Shown here: one piece after another, positions 13,901 through 56,079 of the stretch
Layout of the letters: each line of letters opens with the position of its first letter
Position numbering within the stretch: the stretch's first letter is position 1
Assembly (NCBI GenBank): GCA_024679065.1
Contig: JAGIQG010000002.1
Coordinates: 80,724,001-80,788,000 of the forward strand
Reading direction: 5' to 3'
DNA length: 64,000 nt
Source of the DNA: Sphyrna mokarran
Taxonomy: Eukaryota
Notes under the pieces: generated by a model
What the model saw: the letters and a program-made list of their open reading frames with translations, nothing else
The model's database searches: none
Told to the model about the DNA's origin: nothing
Program-made: the position numbers and the translations under genes

Positions 13901-16900
13901 AACCTAGTCATATTGACTGGGGTACATGTGAGATATAGCATGAAAGAGTCTTTCATTCTTGAAAGGGCCTAGCTGACTGAAACTCACACAGGGAAGCCTC
14001 ATAGTTGCACCCATGGTATAAGACTTAAATTCTCATGGAAATGGAAGTAATTTGGACCTTAGCCAAAATGGTACCAGAGGCCAGATATCTCACCACTGAA
14101 CGTGGCATCTCTATTTTTTGCTGGGGGTGGCAGCAAAGTGTAGCTTTGATTCAAAAGCAATTTTTGAAAAAACAACTCAGCTTTAGACATTTGAGTAAAA
14201 GCTCTAAACTTTTGGAATTCTTCTGGGATTGTTAGCAATTGAAATTTGAATAAAAAGTGGATATGCTCTGTGGCACTGTCAAAAAAATCTCCTGCCCTTT
14301 AAATTGAAGAAAAAGCCCAGCCCATTGTGACTTAGTATTTGCAATTTCAATACATGTTTGTTTATGCAAGCCTGAAAGTTATTACTATAGGATTTGTGGG
14401 GTTTAATGGCTTCCACATACTAGCATTATCACAGTGGGTGTCTGATGTTTATCTCAGTTCATCTCACCTTGGTTCCAGAGGTTGCCCCTGGTTGAATGCA
14501 ATGGAGGGGATAAGGGTAAAGGGTTGACATGGAAAATATTGGGGGGGTGGGGTGGAAAGAGAAATAAAGGTGTAATGAGTTAGTATGAATGGAGCATCTG
14601 GGGGTTCAGCGATAGGAGGCTCTGTTTTTTCCTTGCAACTGGAAACAAATCTCAGATAGACATTTAAAATTGTATACAGTTTACTCTTGCTCCATTAGCA
14701 TTGCAGGCTAGTATTGCGTTGAATCAGATTTTCTAATGCTCTGGCATTTTTACAAGAACAGTTACAGCTTTTCTACTCCAGTTTGACTGCTGGCCATACT
14801 GAAACTCAGGTACTTCATCTATGTTGCTAATGTGACTAGTTACATGTGCTTTTGCCACCTCATCATGAACCTGCTTTACTATAAAACACTGTTAGTATCT
14901 TGATAGCTTGATTTAGAAAATTTTGTCTCACTTCTCTGCTAATTTTGCTCATCCTTCACTCAACCATACTATGTATCACACACAAATCCAATAAGTATAT
15001 ACAAATACCAAACTAAACATTTGCACACCACTGCCAATAAAACCTTATCTTCTATTCTCAAATTCTTGTCACTTAATATTCCCATTATAAAATGCAAACA
15101 TTTAAAATTCTTTAATTTAAGTATTCATGGGTAAAAAGCATTCTTGCTAAATACTGCAAGTTAGACCAATGTGAAAAAAAGCTATTCCTACACAAACTGA
15201 AGGAAAATAAATCTCCAGGGTTAGAAAGGTAATAATTTCCAAGGGAGCAGAGGAGCACTGTGAATCATTAACAATCATGGGCAGTTAGTGGTCACTGGGG
15301 AATTTCTTGCAAATTGGAAACTGGCTAATATAATCCTTCTATTAGAAAGGGATAGCAAAATAGACTATTTAATATAATTGAAAATCAGTTCGAAGGCACT
15401 TGAGAATTATTGATAAAATAACAACCTGGAAAACAGCAATTAAACAAAACTAATCAGGGAAAGTCCTGCTTGACCGACAATCTTTTAATAACAGGCAGCC
15501 AAATGGAAGGTGTTAATCCTTATGGCGCTATGTAGATTTATGTAAGGCACTTAAACTCCATCCTTCAAGTTACAAAGCTCAGTGGATCAGGCAAACCCAA
15601 ATCCATTCCTTGCTCGCTCCAAAAAAAACAAAATTCAAATTGATACCATTCATGGTATCCACAAGAGAGACAAACAAGATCTATGCTAACAAGGTAAGGC
15701 ATTTTATCCCATCTTGGGCTTGATCTTAGCCAAAAGGCCTCTGTAAGGCATTTGTAAAAGTTCTCTTCATGAAAACCAACTAGTTAAGAACAAAGTTGTG
15801 AATATTTGTGGAAGAACTTGGGTGTGATAAATTGTTTGAGGAGGGGTGGGGGTGGAGATAGCATAAAAGGTGCTTATTGAGATTGTGAATGCAAGTCAAT
15901 TAGATAATCAGATGATACCAAACCAGTGCGATCAAAGGAGGTAGCCTTGATATTAAACAAAATATATAAGCGGGCTGGAATGAGAGAGATGAAGTTTAAT
16001 GCAGGTAAGTGTGAAATATTGCATGCTAGAAAAATAAGGAACATGAATGGCTCTAAAATTGTTCAGTATGAAAATTAGTGTCTTGGCAGATTGGTGCTCT
16101 GCAATGTGTTCAATGAATAGATCAAAAGACAAAAACAAAATGCAAATCAACTGATGCTATAGTCAACTATACCATATTCTGGTCAGACTGTTTGCCATTG
16201 AGAAAACTGTGCACACTATTGCTCTTCATGAATAAACACCACTGGATACTGCAAAAAGCCTCAAGATTGATCTCTAATGTTAAAGACATGCACCATGAGA
16301 GATCTGGTAACTGATTTTTTTACTTGAATATGTCAAAGGTCAAATTAGAGGTATATAAAATGGTAAACTGCATGGAAAATCTGGAGTATTATTTTGAAGT
16401 TAAACTACAAAATAGGATAAATTTATGCTAATCCAAAAAATAGCACAAATCCATTATTCTCCAGAGCACAAGTACTTTCCTATATCAATGCAGTAACAAA
16501 GTACTTTTGAATATTTTTTTCTCTTACCACAAGATTAAGCATAACAAAGTCCTCTTTTGCCATTTTCTGAATGTCCTTATTTTCAGCAAATGCTTTCTTC
16601 AGGGCTGTTAGAAGAAAATATAATGTGTAGGTGAAGAGATAGTGAATGCTACAAAATAAAGCAAAAACATTCTCAGCAGCTATTTTACTCTAAAGCACAA
16701 TTAACTATAACAATCAGACTTTAAACTGTTTGTTGAAGTGATTAGTTACCTTGACTGTATGGGCATTCATCCAGGTGGTGGATAACCATTAAAGGTCGAT
16801 TGCTGAAACATGAATACTATAATTAATTCACTGTTTAAATCTGATGAAATGAATATTTAAAGAGGTTAATAAATTCCCTTCCATAAGAGTGTTCAAATGC

Positions 16901-19900: not shown

Positions 19901-21607
19901 GTTGATTGACTCAACCAAACAACAAATGTCAAAACAATGACCTAACTGGCAATTGAAACATTGTGGATTTTTTTTTAATATTGCAACTTTATGTAGGTCA
20001 GGTCTACTGATTTCTGGGAGTCTTTTCATTGTACAGACCTTTCCTTTGTCACAAGACAACTTACAAATCATTCCTTTATCTGTCAATACTGCCACAAGAA
20101 CATCCTGGAATGATATGTTAGTTACTGTCACTCCCTAAGGGGGGAGTGTCTAACATTCCAGACAGCAGTCCATTCTCAATTGATTATATTTCAAGAGAGA
20201 GCTTGGTAGATTGTGGGACATCTAGGGAAATGGGAAAATCATGGATGATCAGATTTGATTTTGCTAAATAGCAGAGCAAAGGACTTGCTTTAGCTTTATA
20301 TTTTATGGATTGTGAGCATCCTGTAGATAGGGTTTGAGAAAGTAAAATTACAGAATTAAAGAGAGCTTTTCAACTTTGATCTGGACTTTGCATAAACCAC
20401 ATACAATCCATTCTACCAATGATACTGTCATACATCATCATAGAATCTCTACAGTGCAGAATGAGACCAGTAGGCCTATTGAGTCTACACCATCTACAAT
20501 TCTACTTATTCCCACAACCACACATATTTAACCTGCTAATCTCTGATACTGGGGTCAATTTAGCACGGCCAATCACCTAACCTGCGCACCTTTGGCCTGT
20601 GGGAGGAAACTGGAGTATCAGGAGGAAACCAATGCAGACATGGAGAGAATATGCAAACTGAGGCCAGAATTGAACCTGGATTCCTGCGCTTGAGGCAGCA
20701 GTGCTAACCACTGTACCATCCCTAAATTCACAATTATTCTTTGTGACACACAAAAAGGATATTTGCATTTCACCGTACAGCTTTCTCTGACTTAAACAAG
20801 AGTGAACAGCTTTACACGTGTATTTCCTCCTTCGCTACCTCTTCATCATTCTATTTTTTTAAGCAGGGCGGAGATATTTCATTTCCTGTTTTAGCTATGA
20901 TCGTTTCAAGTGGGAGGGCCACTTTTTGAACATTCCCTTCTTCTTTGATATACATTTCGTGTAATTACTCTGTATGCATCGCCTGTTCCTATCCTGTTAT
21001 GAACCCACCCCATTAATAAGCACTGCAAGGTTTGAGTTTCCCTAAGCATGCACTCTGTGGATCATCTCGGGAATTCTTGCATTCAGCGTTTACCAGCTAA
21101 TCTGATATGTGCATGCGTGAGTCTCCTATAGAATATTAAACAAATGCAAGGAATGAGGTGTACTCGAAGGTGTACAGGTGCAGGAACAATACTGACAGAC
21201 ACTAGAGAGCGCGCTTTTGGTTAGAAATGCAGCATTACCTCTTTCTTGATTTGAAGAGTCCTTCCTCGTAAGTCTGGACCCAATTAATGTCGTCTCCCCA
21301 TCCTAAGATTAAAATTAAATGCAAACATTAACCTAGTAACCACATCGGGGGGAAGGAGGGAGAGGAGAACGCGATCCAAGTAAACTGCACACAGATAGCA
21401 AAGCATAACCAAACAAACAATGTACCCCGGGGTACTGTGAAAAGTTATAGCCACCTTACCTCTGGACAAACTGGGAGGGCATTGCTTCGTGTTTGTACTC
21501 TCGTTTTTAGCTGGAGGGCTCACAGTCTTGGATCCGGCGGCACCTCTTGCCAGACAACCTGAGACAGCCGCCAGCAGCACCAGTAGGAAAAACGGGAGGG
21601 CAGCCAT
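10852..21607 (-). CDS. agr2: Anterior gradient family protein (AGR2/AGR3/Ag1-like ER PDI-family protein), spliced CDS of 7 coding exons, 179 aa
   Basis: Exons 21607-21460, 21302-21239, 16802-16750, 16604-16528, 13798-13735, 13636-13553 and 10901-10852 (148+64+53+77+64+84+50=540 nt) are all GT-AG and in phase. They give [179 protein letters not shown]. The family is certain; the paralog name (agr2 vs agr3/ag1) is tentative. Confidence 0.93.
11148..11523 (-). mobile_element. HE1-type SINE (plus adjacent second tail fragment)
   Basis: catagaatccctacagtgcaga tail; gtgggaggaaactggagcac..ggaaacccacacagac core; tRNA-like head ending gccaccatgcc. Confidence 0.85.
12560..12912 (+). mobile_element. 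Penelope-like element terminal fragment
   Basis: Ends with gtcatcaacctgaaatttaat..tctctccacagaggatgcct..atttcctgcattttcag, the terminal module repeated at several other sites in the window. Confidence 0.5.
12945..13520. mobile_element. Non-autonomous DNA transposon (Harbinger-type termini)
   Basis: Starts ggtcagaatt; internal ctgattggctggcagc block resembles 55200-55450. Confidence 0.45.
13553..13636 (-). CDS. agr2: AGR coding exon 6 ([28 protein letters not shown])
   Basis: 84 nt, atacag| ... |gtaagt; [10 protein letters not shown] motif. Confidence 0.96.
13735..13798 (-). CDS. agr2: AGR coding exon 5 ([21 protein letters not shown])
   Basis: 64 nt, ttacag| ... |gtaaga; YVPRI motif. Confidence 0.96.
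15240..16440 (+). mobile_element. Old, decayed CR1 LINE RT region (interrupted at 15553-15741)
   Basis: NWKLANI.LL, GKSCLT, D.CKAF.KV and MKFNAGKCE motifs. Confidence 0.7.
15553..15741 (-). mobile_element. U2 snRNA-derived retroposed element with 12-bp TSD
   Basis: 15739-15719 is U2 nt 11-31 exactly; downstream are Sm-site-like TTTTTTTTGGAGC and stem-III-like sequence; flanked by TGTAAGGCACTT (15541-15552) and TGTAAGGCATTT (15742-15753). Confidence 0.8.
16528..16604 (-). CDS. agr2: AGR coding exon 4 ([26 protein letters not shown])
   Basis: 77 nt, taacag| ... |gtaaga. Confidence 0.96.
16750..16802 (-). CDS. agr2: AGR coding exon 3 ([17 protein letters not shown])
   Basis: 53 nt, tttcag| ... 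|gtaact; contains the CxxS pseudo-thioredoxin motif. Confidence 0.96.
17170..17430 (+). mobile_element. HE1-type SINE
   Basis: gggcagcatggtggcacaatgttagcactgctgcctc head, tgtgtggagtttgcac core, gattctatgatt tail. Confidence 0.9.
18935..19760 (-). mobile_element. Decayed Penelope-like retroelement (RT/GIY-YIG 3' portion)
   Basis: Penelope terminal module at 18935-19030; FFHYTND (YIDD-like) near 19710-19740 on -. Confidence 0.55.
20438..20722 (-). mobile_element. HE1-type SINE
   Basis: Complete tail, core and head in antisense. Confidence 0.9.
21239..21302 (-). CDS. agr2: AGR coding exon 2 ([21 protein letters not shown])
   Basis: 64 nt, cttag| ... |gtaatg; family signature GWGD-W-QTYEE. Confidence 0.96.
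21460..21607 (-). CDS. agr2: AGR coding exon 1 (signal peptide + N-terminal extension, ends ...SLSR G)
   Basis: ATG at 21607, hydrophobic signal peptide, donor AG|GTAAGG at 21459; probable acceptor ttctgtgccttgtgtccccag at 21637-21638. Confidence 0.93.
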
Positions 21608-21814
21608 CCTGGTGGGATTCGATTTGTATCAGAGGACTGGGGACACAAGGCACAGAATCAGCAAAATAATACCTTTCAACAATTCAACAACACGTATATG
21701 CACGTCTCAATAATTCCAGAGAGAGAGAGAAGGTTTAGGAATTGTTCTATTTTGTCAAAAATGATTTAACTTCCTTAGTGAAAATCAAAAGTAAAAGTTG
21801 CACCTCCTGTTTAC

Positions 21815-22879: not shown

Positions 22880-23660
22880 TTGTTCATGCACTTCACTGGG
22901 AACTACACCATTTGAAGCATATTTCAGTTCTCTATTTATATTTCTTAAGTAAATGATCTCACATTTTTCTCTACTGAATTGCAAATGTCATTCATATTGC
23001 CTAGATATAGTGTATAGCAGAGTCCCACAATGTTTCTGCTTGTTTTCTACACTTTGTAGTTTTGAATTATTAGCCAATTTTTCCTAAATCCAGATCATGT
23101 ATATACAGTAAAATCCCTGGTCCCGATACTGATTTTTTAAAAACTTTATTCCAATCCAATCAAGTCAAATTAAATCCAATTCAGAGTCCCAACAAGTAGG
23201 GACATTCCCGATCCAAGCTGACAAAACAGGGCTCTCACCACTTGTCTTGGGCTTGATCTGTATGATCCAAGCTGATTGGAGTAGGTATAGCTCCTCCTCC
23301 AAGGCTGGATCTTATCTGTATCTTAGCCAAAAGGCCCAGATGCTGCTTTAAAAAATTGCTTCAAATGAAGCTGAAATGCAACCTAATGACTTCAACCAAG
23401 TGCAGATGTCGATACTACACTTGATCTTAGCCAGAAGGCCAAGTTGTAGAACTCCAGCACCAAGCCTAAAAACCATATATTTGTTGTAACCTTTTGCTAT
23501 CTGAATTCATTCACCTCTTTGTCCATATTGCCACACTTTAATCTGCACACCACTTTTTAAGGTACATTCTGAAAGTTTACGAAAAGACAGGGACTGAACT
23601 CCCATCTTTACTTTCAATTATTTTCTCAAAATATTTCATCAGGTTTGTCAAACATGACAT
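22880..23660 (-). mobile_element. Old decayed CR1 fragment hosting the U2-derived insertion
   Basis: ggtcccgatactgat...tgtagaactcc is the split antisense VPQGSVLGP motif. Confidence 0.5.
23144..23445 (-). mobile_element. Composite U2 snRNA-derived element: two U2 heads and two tandem hairpin cassettes
   Basis: 23440-23411 matches U2 nt 11-40 (29/30) and 23336-23320 matches U2 nt 11-27; cassettes at 23264-23311 and 23210-23258; U2 stem-IIb-like GTCCC..GGGAC follows. Confidence 0.8.
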
Positions 23661-54219: not shown

Positions 54220-54933
54220 TCAGTTTTTATACCCCTTCATTCCCATTCTGTTCATGTGCCCATCTAAGTATTTCTTACATAACTCCAGAGTGCCTGCCTC
54301 CACCACTTTACTTGGGAGCGCATTCCATACCCCCACCACCATCTGTGTGAAAAAACTCCCTTTAGCATCCAAATTATACCTTACCCCCCTCACCCTAAGC
54401 CCGTGACCCCTCGTGCTATTTGAGTCCATCCTAGGAAAAAGCTTAACCCTGTTTACTCTATCTATACCCCTCATAATCTTGTACACCTCTATTAGATCTC
54501 CTCTAAGTCTACATCTTTCTAAGGAAAACAGTCCCAATTTGCCTAACCTCTCCTCGTAATTCAGACCTTCCATACCAGGCAGCATCCTGGTAAACCTCCT
54601 CTGCACTCTCTCCAGAGTCTCCACGTCCTTCCGGTAGTAAGGCGACCAGAACTGGACGCAGTATTCCAAATGAGGTCTAACCAACGTTTTATAGAACTGC
54701 AACATTAAAGGCCAGCTCTTGTACTCTATACCCCTTCCTATAAAGGCTAGCTTACTATATGCTTTCTTCACAACCTTCTCCACCTGCTCTGCCACCTTCA
54801 GAGACTTGTTCACCTGCACCCCCAGGTCCCTCTGCATTTCTATACTCCTAATAGGTCTACCCTTTATCATATACCTCCCCCCTACATTCTTTCTCCTGAA
54901 ATGCATCACCTCACATTTATCAGGATTAATCAT
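54220..54933 (-). mobile_element. CR1 LINE ORF2 C-terminal fragment with an uninterrupted 237-codon frame
   Basis: NPDKCEVMHF..RDLGV..YKTLVRPHLEYCVQFWSP..RLRGDLIEVYKI..TRGH..FFTQ. Confidence 0.95.
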
Positions 54934-56079
54934 GATTGGCCTTTACACCCTGATGCCAATTAAGAGAGCAATTATGCCCATTTAAGGGCCTCATCCTGCC
55001 TCAATTCATATTCAACCAGCGGTGGGAGGGGCAATTGCTTTGTGAGGAGCCTGAAAAGCAAATTCTTTTGGGCTTGTAGGCTCCTGGGGCATCAGTTATT
55101 GTCTGGCACTCATCAAAGGACTCAGTATCAGGAAGTCGGGGCCTGCTAAGAGCTGCCACCATTCTCCACTCCCCTCAGTACTTCACATAACCTCCATCCT
55201 ATTTTCACTCACCTGTGAGGTGGGGGTGGGTCCCTTACTGATCCTGAGCCTCTGGTTATTTCATGGCTGGCAGATACCATTACTCTCCTGAGGCACTGAC
55301 AGCAGTAAGGAGCTGCCTGTCTCTGATTGAGTGGCTGTTCTCCAGGTTTCTTGATCCCAGTAAAGGCCAGGAAAGTGCCTGACTGGTACTTAATATGGTG
55401 GGCCTTCTCCAAAGGAAGCAATGTAAGGCTCTCACCAACTCTGCAGTGATGGGGGAGAACCCCATTGTTTGAATTAGATTCCTCCCATTTCATCTGGTCA
55501 GCTTTCAATGAAATTTTGATAAGGATGAATGTATTTTGCAACCTGAAATGAACAATCCATTTTAATACAAAAAGTAATCTTACTCTAACCTCTGACACAT
55601 CACTGGGTTCCCCACATATATCCATCAATCGTGGTTTGCCTTGTTACAAAACAGTCTATTTGTGAGTCAATTGTTCTTCTTTCCAGGTGTAAATTTGCAT
55701 CGTTTTTTTACATATTTCACCATCCTTTTTGGCATTCAGCTGAAAGATCCTGGTATCAGTTGTAGGATGTGTCTGTGATAACAACCAGAAAACAACTAAA
55801 TGAATTGCCTAATATGACAGTCTGTAGCTTACACACCTACTATATCCGGGATAAGTTTTAAATGATTCCTGACCACTCCCCACTATTTATACATATACTA
55901 TCTCTTGTTCAGTTCTTGTATCAATTACATGTTAGCTTTTAAATTTATATTTTTTTCTGAGAGTTCTTATGCTCTGAAAGGTGAACAATTTGAAGGCTAC
56001 GAATAGAACATTTCACTACTTTTGACAGATAGTGAGAATTCAGAATTTCCCAGGTACAGGCTTTTAATCTGTTGTGGAA

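Follow-up and report, generated by a model that had tools for sequence, protein, structure and literature searches.

The minus strand of the 64,000-nt stretch of the Sphyrna mokarran genome analysed here (hereafter the window; coordinates were read from its sequence) carries at 15553-15741 a U2-derived element of about 190 bp, which starts as an exact copy of U2 snRNA and then departs from it. The question raised by this locus is whether the element is a plain U2 pseudogene, or one member of a shark family of mobile U2-derived RNAs with rewired target pairing, as the initial annotation proposed. The parts of the element, from its 5' to its 3' side, and two neighbouring features are listed below.

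15742..15753, minus strand: 5' target-site duplication, 12 bp with 1 mismatch to the 3' copy, within a decayed CR1-like RT
15719..15739, minus strand: U2 head in the short-head form, exact U2 nt 11-31
15707..15718, minus strand: 12-nt insertion forming the hairpin 5' arm, likely a diverged duplication of U2 nt 20-31
15700..15706, minus strand: loop of the hairpin, homologous to the branch-point recognition segment of U2 (nt 32-38) and more decayed in the window copy
15678..15699, minus strand: hairpin module, 3' arm plus basal stem, running colinearly with U2 nt 39-61 but no longer pairing as stem IIa
15652..15671, minus strand: stem IIb homologue (family majority against the genome's own U2 nt 57-87, 21/31 matches)
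15629..15651, minus strand: TTGGA/TTGAA-type repeats that have expanded in the interval from stem IIb to the Sm site, also present in sister family B
15616..15628, minus strand: Sm-site homologue; the base preceding the T run is G in 43/50 and A in 6/50 scored copies
15581..15609, minus strand: stem-loop III homologue; the majority still folds (-11.2 against -15.1 kcal/mol for U2)
15553..15580, minus strand: eroded stem-loop IV region and 3' end; loop lost, with an 8-nt deletion in the window copy
15541..15552, minus strand: 3' target-site duplication, direct repeat
16528..16602, minus strand: host-gene exon of the AGR2/AGR3 family, with matches to AGR2 and AGR3 chains of human at E 7e-5 to 1.5e-4
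23145..23446, minus strand: member of sister family B elsewhere in the window, with two hairpin modules

All 21 nucleotides of the head (U2 nt 11-31, as claimed) are identical to the genome's own U2 genes, and the proposed 12-bp direct repeat with its single mismatch was confirmed at 15541-15552 and 15742-15753. The body past the head, described as U2-like, aligns with U2 at a local score of 65.8 against 37.9±5.4 for shuffled sequences (1/2000 reached the score), so the match to U2 is not limited to the 21-nt head. The Rfam RF00004 scan returned no U2 match for the window copy, and its hairpin, taken alone, is decayed (z -0.79). The element lies in an intron of the AGR2/AGR3-family gene, in sense orientation to this host gene. 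The insertion had also been said to duplicate codons of an older CR1 RT. The translated flank motifs of the decayed CR1-like RT keep the correct order on either side of the insertion, and the two sides join on the duplicated bases; the statistics are weak, with tblastn against a tiny database giving E~1e-4 for a single downstream motif and nhmmer giving E 0.1 and 0.23 for the two sides. Interruption of a CR1 RT by the element is thus plausible.

The genome's own U2 genes were located with RF00004 (48 scored matches), and one of four near-identical U2 genes clustered on C949 served as the U2 reference throughout. Alignments were controlled with 2000 dinucleotide shuffles, and the body past nt 31 was aligned locally to U2 nt ~44-170. 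The majority sequence of 30 related copies (family A) scored 92.1 against 39.4±5.7 for shuffles, none of the 2000 reaching it. Its head matches U2 nt 5-31; past the 12-nt insertion it follows U2 nt 32-55 ungapped with 16/24 matches, and six of the eight differences are transitions. Over U2 nt 32-48 alone the agreement is 10/17, the best of 30 registers by one match only. The other blocks colinear with U2 are nt 57-87 (21/31), the Sm region (10/11) and nt 125-160 (24/36). The annotation's view that a foreign cassette replaced the branch-point segment does not fit this alignment, in which the segment is mutated in place behind the insertion. The insertion itself matches U2 nt 20-31 at 6/12 positions, and a further 12 nt found in a longer form of the head match it at 9/12; from this likeness, repeated tandem duplication is the likely source of the insertion.

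In the predicted fold, the insertion is paired with the homologue of nt 39-48, and what was the stem IIa region is paired with U2 nt 22-31. The resulting 54-nt hairpin has a predicted energy of -19.2 kcal/mol (z -2.8; 8/500 shuffles), against -2.7 for U2 nt 22-50. According to this model, family A has a BSL-like hairpin that is extended and locked and whose tip is formed by the mutated branch-point segment (GCAAUG). The loop reads TGCAATG in 13/25 modules of the A/C type and AGCTATG in 13/32 modules of the B1 type, and an Rfam scan of the hairpin module found no ribozyme or other family. The family-A majority keeps the folds of stem IIb and stem-loop III, and the loop of stem-loop IV is gone. 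The part annotated as stem-IIa-like is indeed colinear with U2, but it does not fold as stem IIa. The sequence GTAGTA, corresponding to the GUAGUA branch-point segment of functional U2, occurs in 0/57 family-A bodies. RF00004, suggested as a check, matched two of three other family-A loci, at 24.9 and 31.5 bits, both below the gathering threshold of 46 bits, and no similarity to an upstream snRNA promoter was detected in the 62 family-A loci tested. A working U2 needs stem IIa, the Sm site, the loop of stem-loop IV and the branch-point segment. It is unlikely that family-A RNA is a working variant U2, because stem IIa, the loop of stem-loop IV and, in most copies, the Sm-site A are lost; BSL-stabilising mutations are described as acting against unwinding in the available part of PMC13019295. 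The proposed rewiring of target pairing has no support, the segment being predicted to lie in the loop of a stable stem and parts essential to U2 being lost.

Family A is numerous. Searching the genome at the DNA level returned 3,290 first-look candidates, of which the 40 that were scored covered the same interval at 77-85% identity, save the self match and one partial match. A family-A 29-mer matched at 658 places with no more than 2 mismatches, exactly at 61 of these (reversed control, 0), and a binomial fit to these counts, which leaves out indels and rate variation, gave 11% decay per site and ~1,800 copies. Elements are ~205-217 bp long. Among 57 distinct copies (60 loci minus 3 duplicates), identity to the majority was 77.6-94.9% (mean 89.4%) and the best pair reached 92.6%; no young copies or signs of recent activity were seen in this sample. 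The claim of a mobile family therefore holds for retroposition, but its mobility lies in the past.

The marks of retroposition are clear in the family as a whole. Boundaries are sharp, with the U2 5' end on one side and an A/T-rich tail on the other; copies are dispersed, and their flanks look mutually unrelated. The suggested consensus and TSD count gave a TSD score of at least 8 in 9/57 copies, compared with 1.4% of 842 swapped-flank controls, so that target-site duplications above chance accompany the shared internal changes. The 5' ends cluster at the U2 5' end with variable 5' truncation, and 17/27 motif-sampled copies align only past reference position 12, their heads being truncated or decayed. 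The head occurs in two forms, the short one of the window copy and one 12 nt longer; the motif-sampled heads comprise 8 long, 1 short and 18 truncated or other, and no short- and long-head subfamilies were separated by the 24 variable body columns (min p 0.073). One copy (L175) retains U2 sequence to about nt 48. In copies elsewhere, the 3' end runs on into AGTAAA/AATAAA and then an A/T-rich tail, the motif preceding the tail in the 57 copies being GAGTAAA (21), GAATAAA (4) or AAGTAAA (4), and T4-T5 runs occur inside the element. A MITE or other DNA transposon was rejected, as terminal inverted repeats are absent and tails and truncations are present. No sequencing run recorded as RNA contained the stretch. 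Family-A pieces also occur inside longer contigs of two small presumed-RNA sets from one study of a relative (17 and 22 records in one comparison, 47 and 56 in a second), which bear on neither transcript ends nor transcript levels; a stem-loop III variant from these contigs had 0 matches in the S. mokarran assembly at up to 3 mismatches. The initial annotation was right that this is no plain U2 pseudogene: it belongs to a retroposed, TSD-making U2-derived family of many copies, and the window copy is one dead, decayed member of this old SINE family.

Family A is part of a larger U2-headed superfamily. One RF00004 match (L051) held a related insert, and a search with this insert gave 1,855 candidates, which define family B. 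It starts with U2 nt 1-38; ~60 other bases separate this from a second U2-like head, behind which come two hairpin modules, then a stem-IIb-like hairpin and finally a tail. The copy at 23145-23446 has the U2 nt 1-38 head, the second U2-like head, both modules and a Tx1-like tail. The U2 3' domain is absent altogether from family B, which nevertheless carries the module twice and stacked heads. The two motifs flanking the module co-occur exactly 2,381 times in the genome (control, 0), with several stem types between them, and GATCAAGCC in the module is conserved in all lineages. Stem pairing was scored at the first six stem positions over 104 module instances from the studied loci. Within lineages it reaches 0.90 (A), 0.94 (B1) and 0.91 (B2); across lineages, the 5' arm of A or B2 pairs with the B1 3' arm at 0.36-0.38, the reverse combination gives 0.63-0.65, and A and B2 pair with each other at 0.75-0.94. 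The majority pairs differ on both sides between lineages, that is, by double changes at several pairs. This pattern, drawn from three lineages only, points to selection for structure of the hairpin stems among the source lineages.

A candidate partner for both families is a LINE of ~5.2 kb, for which the searched piece gave 119 candidates. Its RT domain is recognised by Pfam (E 8e-18), an APE match is weak and below cut-off (E 5e-4), and ORF1 contains CCHC motifs. Among named proteins the closest belongs to a ray (77% identity), in agreement with the elasmobranch setting that the annotation had assumed, and its relatives carry APE, RT and zf-RVT. Four of seven aligned LINE 5' ends (L151, L152, L154, L155) start with a U2 head of variable length, followed directly by a short version of the module's basal stem, which may alternatively pair back on the U2 head; LINE copies have TSDs of 10-17 bp. 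Exact searches for a tail followed by U2 nt 38+ found four such junctions for the LINE end, three for family B and two for family A (control, 0 each). The LINE and both families thus each have insertions before U2 nt 38-42, and one locus (L205) nests the LINE 3' end, U2 fragments and two family-A copies. Three of the loci (L210-L212) could be insertions into promoterless U2 retrocopies. Only a minority of LINE copies is inserted after U2 nt 38, most being dispersed. U2 targeting is weak, because dispersed copies show no enrichment of U2-like targets (family A 5/28, family B 1/31, LINE 1/7, against a 13% background). Family A and the LINE have in common the rare U2 target, the nesting and the head layout; no long common 3' tail was found, and the last ~25 nt have a loose likeness by eye. 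Utopia was rejected as partner because the LINE has an APE. By its sequence, with APE, RT and the insertion site as Keno-like traits, the LINE is probably of the Tx1/Keno type.

Insertions at this site were also found in U2 loci with a putative promoter. A search with the U2 upstream region hit 8 places in the genome, and a 23-base motif common to U2 loci at about -65 to -35, on which the label promoter rests here, has nine sites, seven of them exact (control, 0). The two inexact sites (3 mismatches) were rejected as chance matches in other repeats. Five of the exact sites precede a whole U2 and two precede an interrupted one. At one of the latter (L171), ~40 kb from the U2 cluster, U2 nt 4-37 is followed by a family-B element, U2 nt 40-187 and the 3' flank; at the other (L166), U2 nt 1-38 is followed by a LINE fragment. 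Neither is shown as a master, because both are eroded and carry other repeats in their upstream regions. The annotation had advised looking for a master copy with an snRNA promoter; family A stands behind the U2 promoter motif at 0/9 sites in the assembly.

Taken together, we put at roughly 0.7 the probability that family A is a short, non-autonomous U2-derived retroposon, likely copied by a U2-targeting Tx1/Keno-type LINE and likely transcribed by Pol II from U2 promoters. The LINE would supply the enzymes; a copy landing at nt ~38 of a U2 gene would then be transcribed by Pol II from the U2 promoter with a fresh U2 head, and recurrence of this event would renew the head. Family-A heads are near-identical to U2, whereas the bodies are about 65-70% identical; such borrowing of a promoter together with a fresh head would produce near-U2 heads on diverged bodies as well as the stacked heads of family B. 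Promoter borrowing is likely for family A, by extension from family B and the LINE, in which its basis was seen, and not from family A itself. AGTAAA/AATAAA before the tail may serve as a polyadenylation signal. The hairpin would have been selected for RNA stability and for burying the branch-point segment and thereby keeping the RNA from acting as U2. Like the window copy, most insertions would have landed at random sites with no promoter and then decayed.

Other explanations were weighed against the same observations. The copies might be processed pseudogenes of one or a few divergent variant-U2 genes with their own snRNA promoter; the variant would then be a host RNA, possibly Sm-bound and with a changed branch-point loop, and its copies would never have transposed again. 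Such an origin would agree with a body colinear with the whole of U2, the retained folds of stem IIb and stem-loop III, some RAU4-6GR motif in 26/57 copies, and the occurrence of both head forms on one body with no diagnostic column, as few masters predict; the majority loop GCAAUG would in addition pair with a yUnAy-type sequence. However, no such gene was seen at the sites of the U2 promoter motif, family A has lost both the stem IIa pairing and the loop of stem-loop IV, G replaces the Sm-site A in 43/50 copies, and BSL stabilisation acts against unwinding according to the available part of PMC13019295. Family B, with its doubled module and stacked heads and no U2 3' domain, fits selfish evolution, and we regard variant-U2 genes as an unlikely source. 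A related and slightly more doubtful idea is that of a "selfish snRNA", whose source RNA would come from a U2 promoter, would carry a cap and perhaps Sm proteins, and would meet the LINE proteins and return to the nucleus by way of snRNP export and re-import; its hyper-stable BSL would present a GCAAUG loop complementary to a yUnAy-type site, and a live, possibly domesticated, splicing-active version might survive in certain sharks or within a U2 array that is not assembled.

The same U2 SINE could instead have depended on passive transcription, from host genes or neighbouring repeats, and on copying by another poly(A)-priming LINE, the insertions at the U2 site being side events. The lack of a genome-wide target preference and the family-A pieces in longer contigs of the relative's presumed-RNA assemblies speak for this, as does the flank-driven model of Kojima for SINEU in the available part of PMC4494074. 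Family-A tails that directly precede U2 nt 38+ and are nested with the Tx1 end, the head layout common to family A and the LINE, and the clustering of 5' ends at the U2 5' end argue against it, which makes passive transcription improbable. Far less credible is a Pol III SINE with the U2 head as A box and GATCAAGCC of the module as B box. The B-box pattern is GWTCRANNC, which the conserved GATCAAGCC of the module does fit in every lineage, but base pairing explains this conservation, in family A a mere ~20 nt separates the putative boxes, and T4 and T5 runs lie inside the element. Finally, a single U2 pseudogene, or a 21-nt U2 match beside an unrelated repeat, would explain why the window copy reaches no Rfam U2 score; hundreds of copies with internal changes in common and a body aligning to U2 far above shuffles leave it a negligible chance. 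The plain pseudogene is refuted by the shuffle-controlled alignment, the 29-mer copy count and the colinearity of the blocks.

Under the preferred reading of a U2-derived retroposon borrowing U2 promoters, the SINE and LINE insertions at nt 37-38 of promoter-bearing U2 loci are physical intermediates, and the finding would extend SINEU beyond crocodilians into cartilaginous fish. It gives a testable model, in which target-specific insertion provides both a promoter and a fresh head, and a likely answer to how SINEU are transcribed. The family also amounts to a natural experiment in turning the BSL of U2 into a stable hairpin whose stems are compensated. For shark phylogeny, the dead family-A copies offer practical presence/absence markers; they are also a source of false U2 or ncRNA annotation.

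Among chondrichthyan retroposons, HE1 is a SINE of cartilaginous fishes. SacSINE1 and the CmiSINEs are also non-autonomous, but have tRNA heads and L2-type tails (PMC5499810, available part, where 'snRNA' and 'SINEU' have 0 occurrences). Like U2 processed pseudogenes, of which the S. mokarran genome holds many ordinary ones, family A is U2-derived, TSD-flanked and promoterless; ordinary U2 retrocopies, however, stay close to U2 and pass the Rfam cut-off, whereas the ~1,800 copies of family A have insertions and substitutions of their own in common. Family A also resembles monomeric Alu (FAM/FLAM) and BC1/ID-type master-gene families, in which a structural RNA gene was remodelled internally and amplified by a LINE; FAM is cited in PMC4494074 as well. 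Those families have internal Pol III promoters, and U2 has an external Pol II promoter. According to the available part of PMC4640811, Keno (Tx1 clade, APE) and Utopia (RLE) insert after U2 nt 38, U2 resuming at nt 38/39. The S. mokarran elements share with them this insertion point, tandem arrays at the site and a weakened specificity, as in some vertebrate lineages; unlike them, family A is non-coding and short.

The closest likeness is to the crocodilian SINEU. In the available part of the study by Kojima (PMC4494074), no SINEU was detected outside crocodilians, Tx1-Mar LINEs, some with U1/U2 heads, were named as likely partners, and transcription was left open because U2 has no internal promoter; internal oligo-T runs were held to argue against Pol III, and transcription driven from the flanks was proposed. 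The accessible parts of four further papers (PMC5381603, PMC5786205, PMC4758252, PMC5499810) mention SINEU for crocodilians alone or nowhere. The literature searched contained no snRNA-headed SINEs in sharks or rays and no U2-promoter-driven SINEU; a Repbase or Dfam entry, which lay outside the search, is possible. As far as SINEU-1/2/3 are described in that portion of PMC4494074, they and the S. mokarran elements have in common a U2 head, a length below 500 bp, a poly(A)-type tail, TSDs, internal oligo-T and a shared internal rearrangement, and also recurrent 5' addition of U2, a likely Tx1-type partner with U2 heads and thousands of copies. SINEU-3, however, is an internally deleted U2, whereas family A retains nearly the full length of U2, expanded internally and with a covarying hairpin at the BSL. 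SINEU prefers Mariner-N4, and the only recurrent target seen for the S. mokarran elements is U2 nt 38-42; insertions in promoter-bearing U2 loci, seen here, are unreported for SINEU in the same text. The S. mokarran superfamily is probably independent of the crocodilian families. Its family A has the class features of SINEU, namely a U2 head, short non-coding dispersed copies, a poly(A)-type tail, 5' truncation and TSDs, and is, by these features, a SINEU-type retroposon outside crocodilians, unreported in the literature searched.

The best candidate among the loci for a former source-type locus is a U2 gene of Sphyrna mokarran that lies near the U2 cluster and is interrupted by an element of family B, the sister family with two hairpin modules:

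L171:1490-2040 (G000:C949), U2 gene with the upstream promoter motif and a family-B element inside

In this locus, U2 is broken after nt 37 by the family-B element, which is followed by U2 nt 40-187 and 3' flank. The upstream region holds another inserted repeat. The promoter motif is also present at L166/L098 (G000:C557), where it is followed by U2 nt 1-38, the first ~10 family-B-typical bases, and a fragment of LINE endonuclease; this arrangement is a SINE-to-LINE junction or a template switch. A Tx1/Keno-type LINE family (L149-L158) of about 5.2 kb shows ~80% identity between pairs and has U2 heads that differ in length. In one subgroup the 3' UTR is duplicated, and the duplication junction resembles the U2 target.

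Dispersed units without a promoter (L210, L212) are made up of a U2 head followed by family B and then by U2 nt 42-187 with 3' flank. They represent either read-through retrocopies or U2 retrocopies that received an insertion. In many ordinary U2 retrocopies (L037-L047), the copied sequence extends through the 3' box region and takes in 30-40 nt of 3' flank, meaning that their templates were unprocessed U2 transcripts. Among pseudogenes (L043, L048, L049, L052, L054, L055, L208, and L211), a second type of U2 sequence was found that differs in stem IIb and stem-loop III; the top matches included no intact gene of this type.

Three features were located in the window:

23145-23446, minus strand, full-length family-B copy with two U2-like heads, two hairpin modules, and an AATAAAG-type tail
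21284-21628, minus strand, exon of the AGR gene (an AGR2/AGR3-family host gene) that probably encodes the signal peptide
54220-54942, minus strand, 240-aa open frame, presumably resembling the C-terminal part of CR1 ORF2

Relative to the AGR gene, the family-B copy is upstream, at about 1.5 kb from the putative first coding exon.

Two copies of family A, the U2-derived retroposon of the window, are nested with a LINE 3' end and U2 fragments in one array (L205:1280-1850, minus strand), and one of them has a variant hairpin. A family-A-like element with another loop and another stem-loop III was identified in a related organism's contig (sets X1 and X2, aligned to window 15607-15708). This variant had 0 matches in the S. 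mokarran assembly at ≤3 mismatches and is possibly a lineage-specific subfamily. Finally, L114, L121, L108, and L109 belong to more lineages (family C and others) with differing 5' extensions and stems, and their loops, GUAAUG, are nearer to the GUAGUA of U2.
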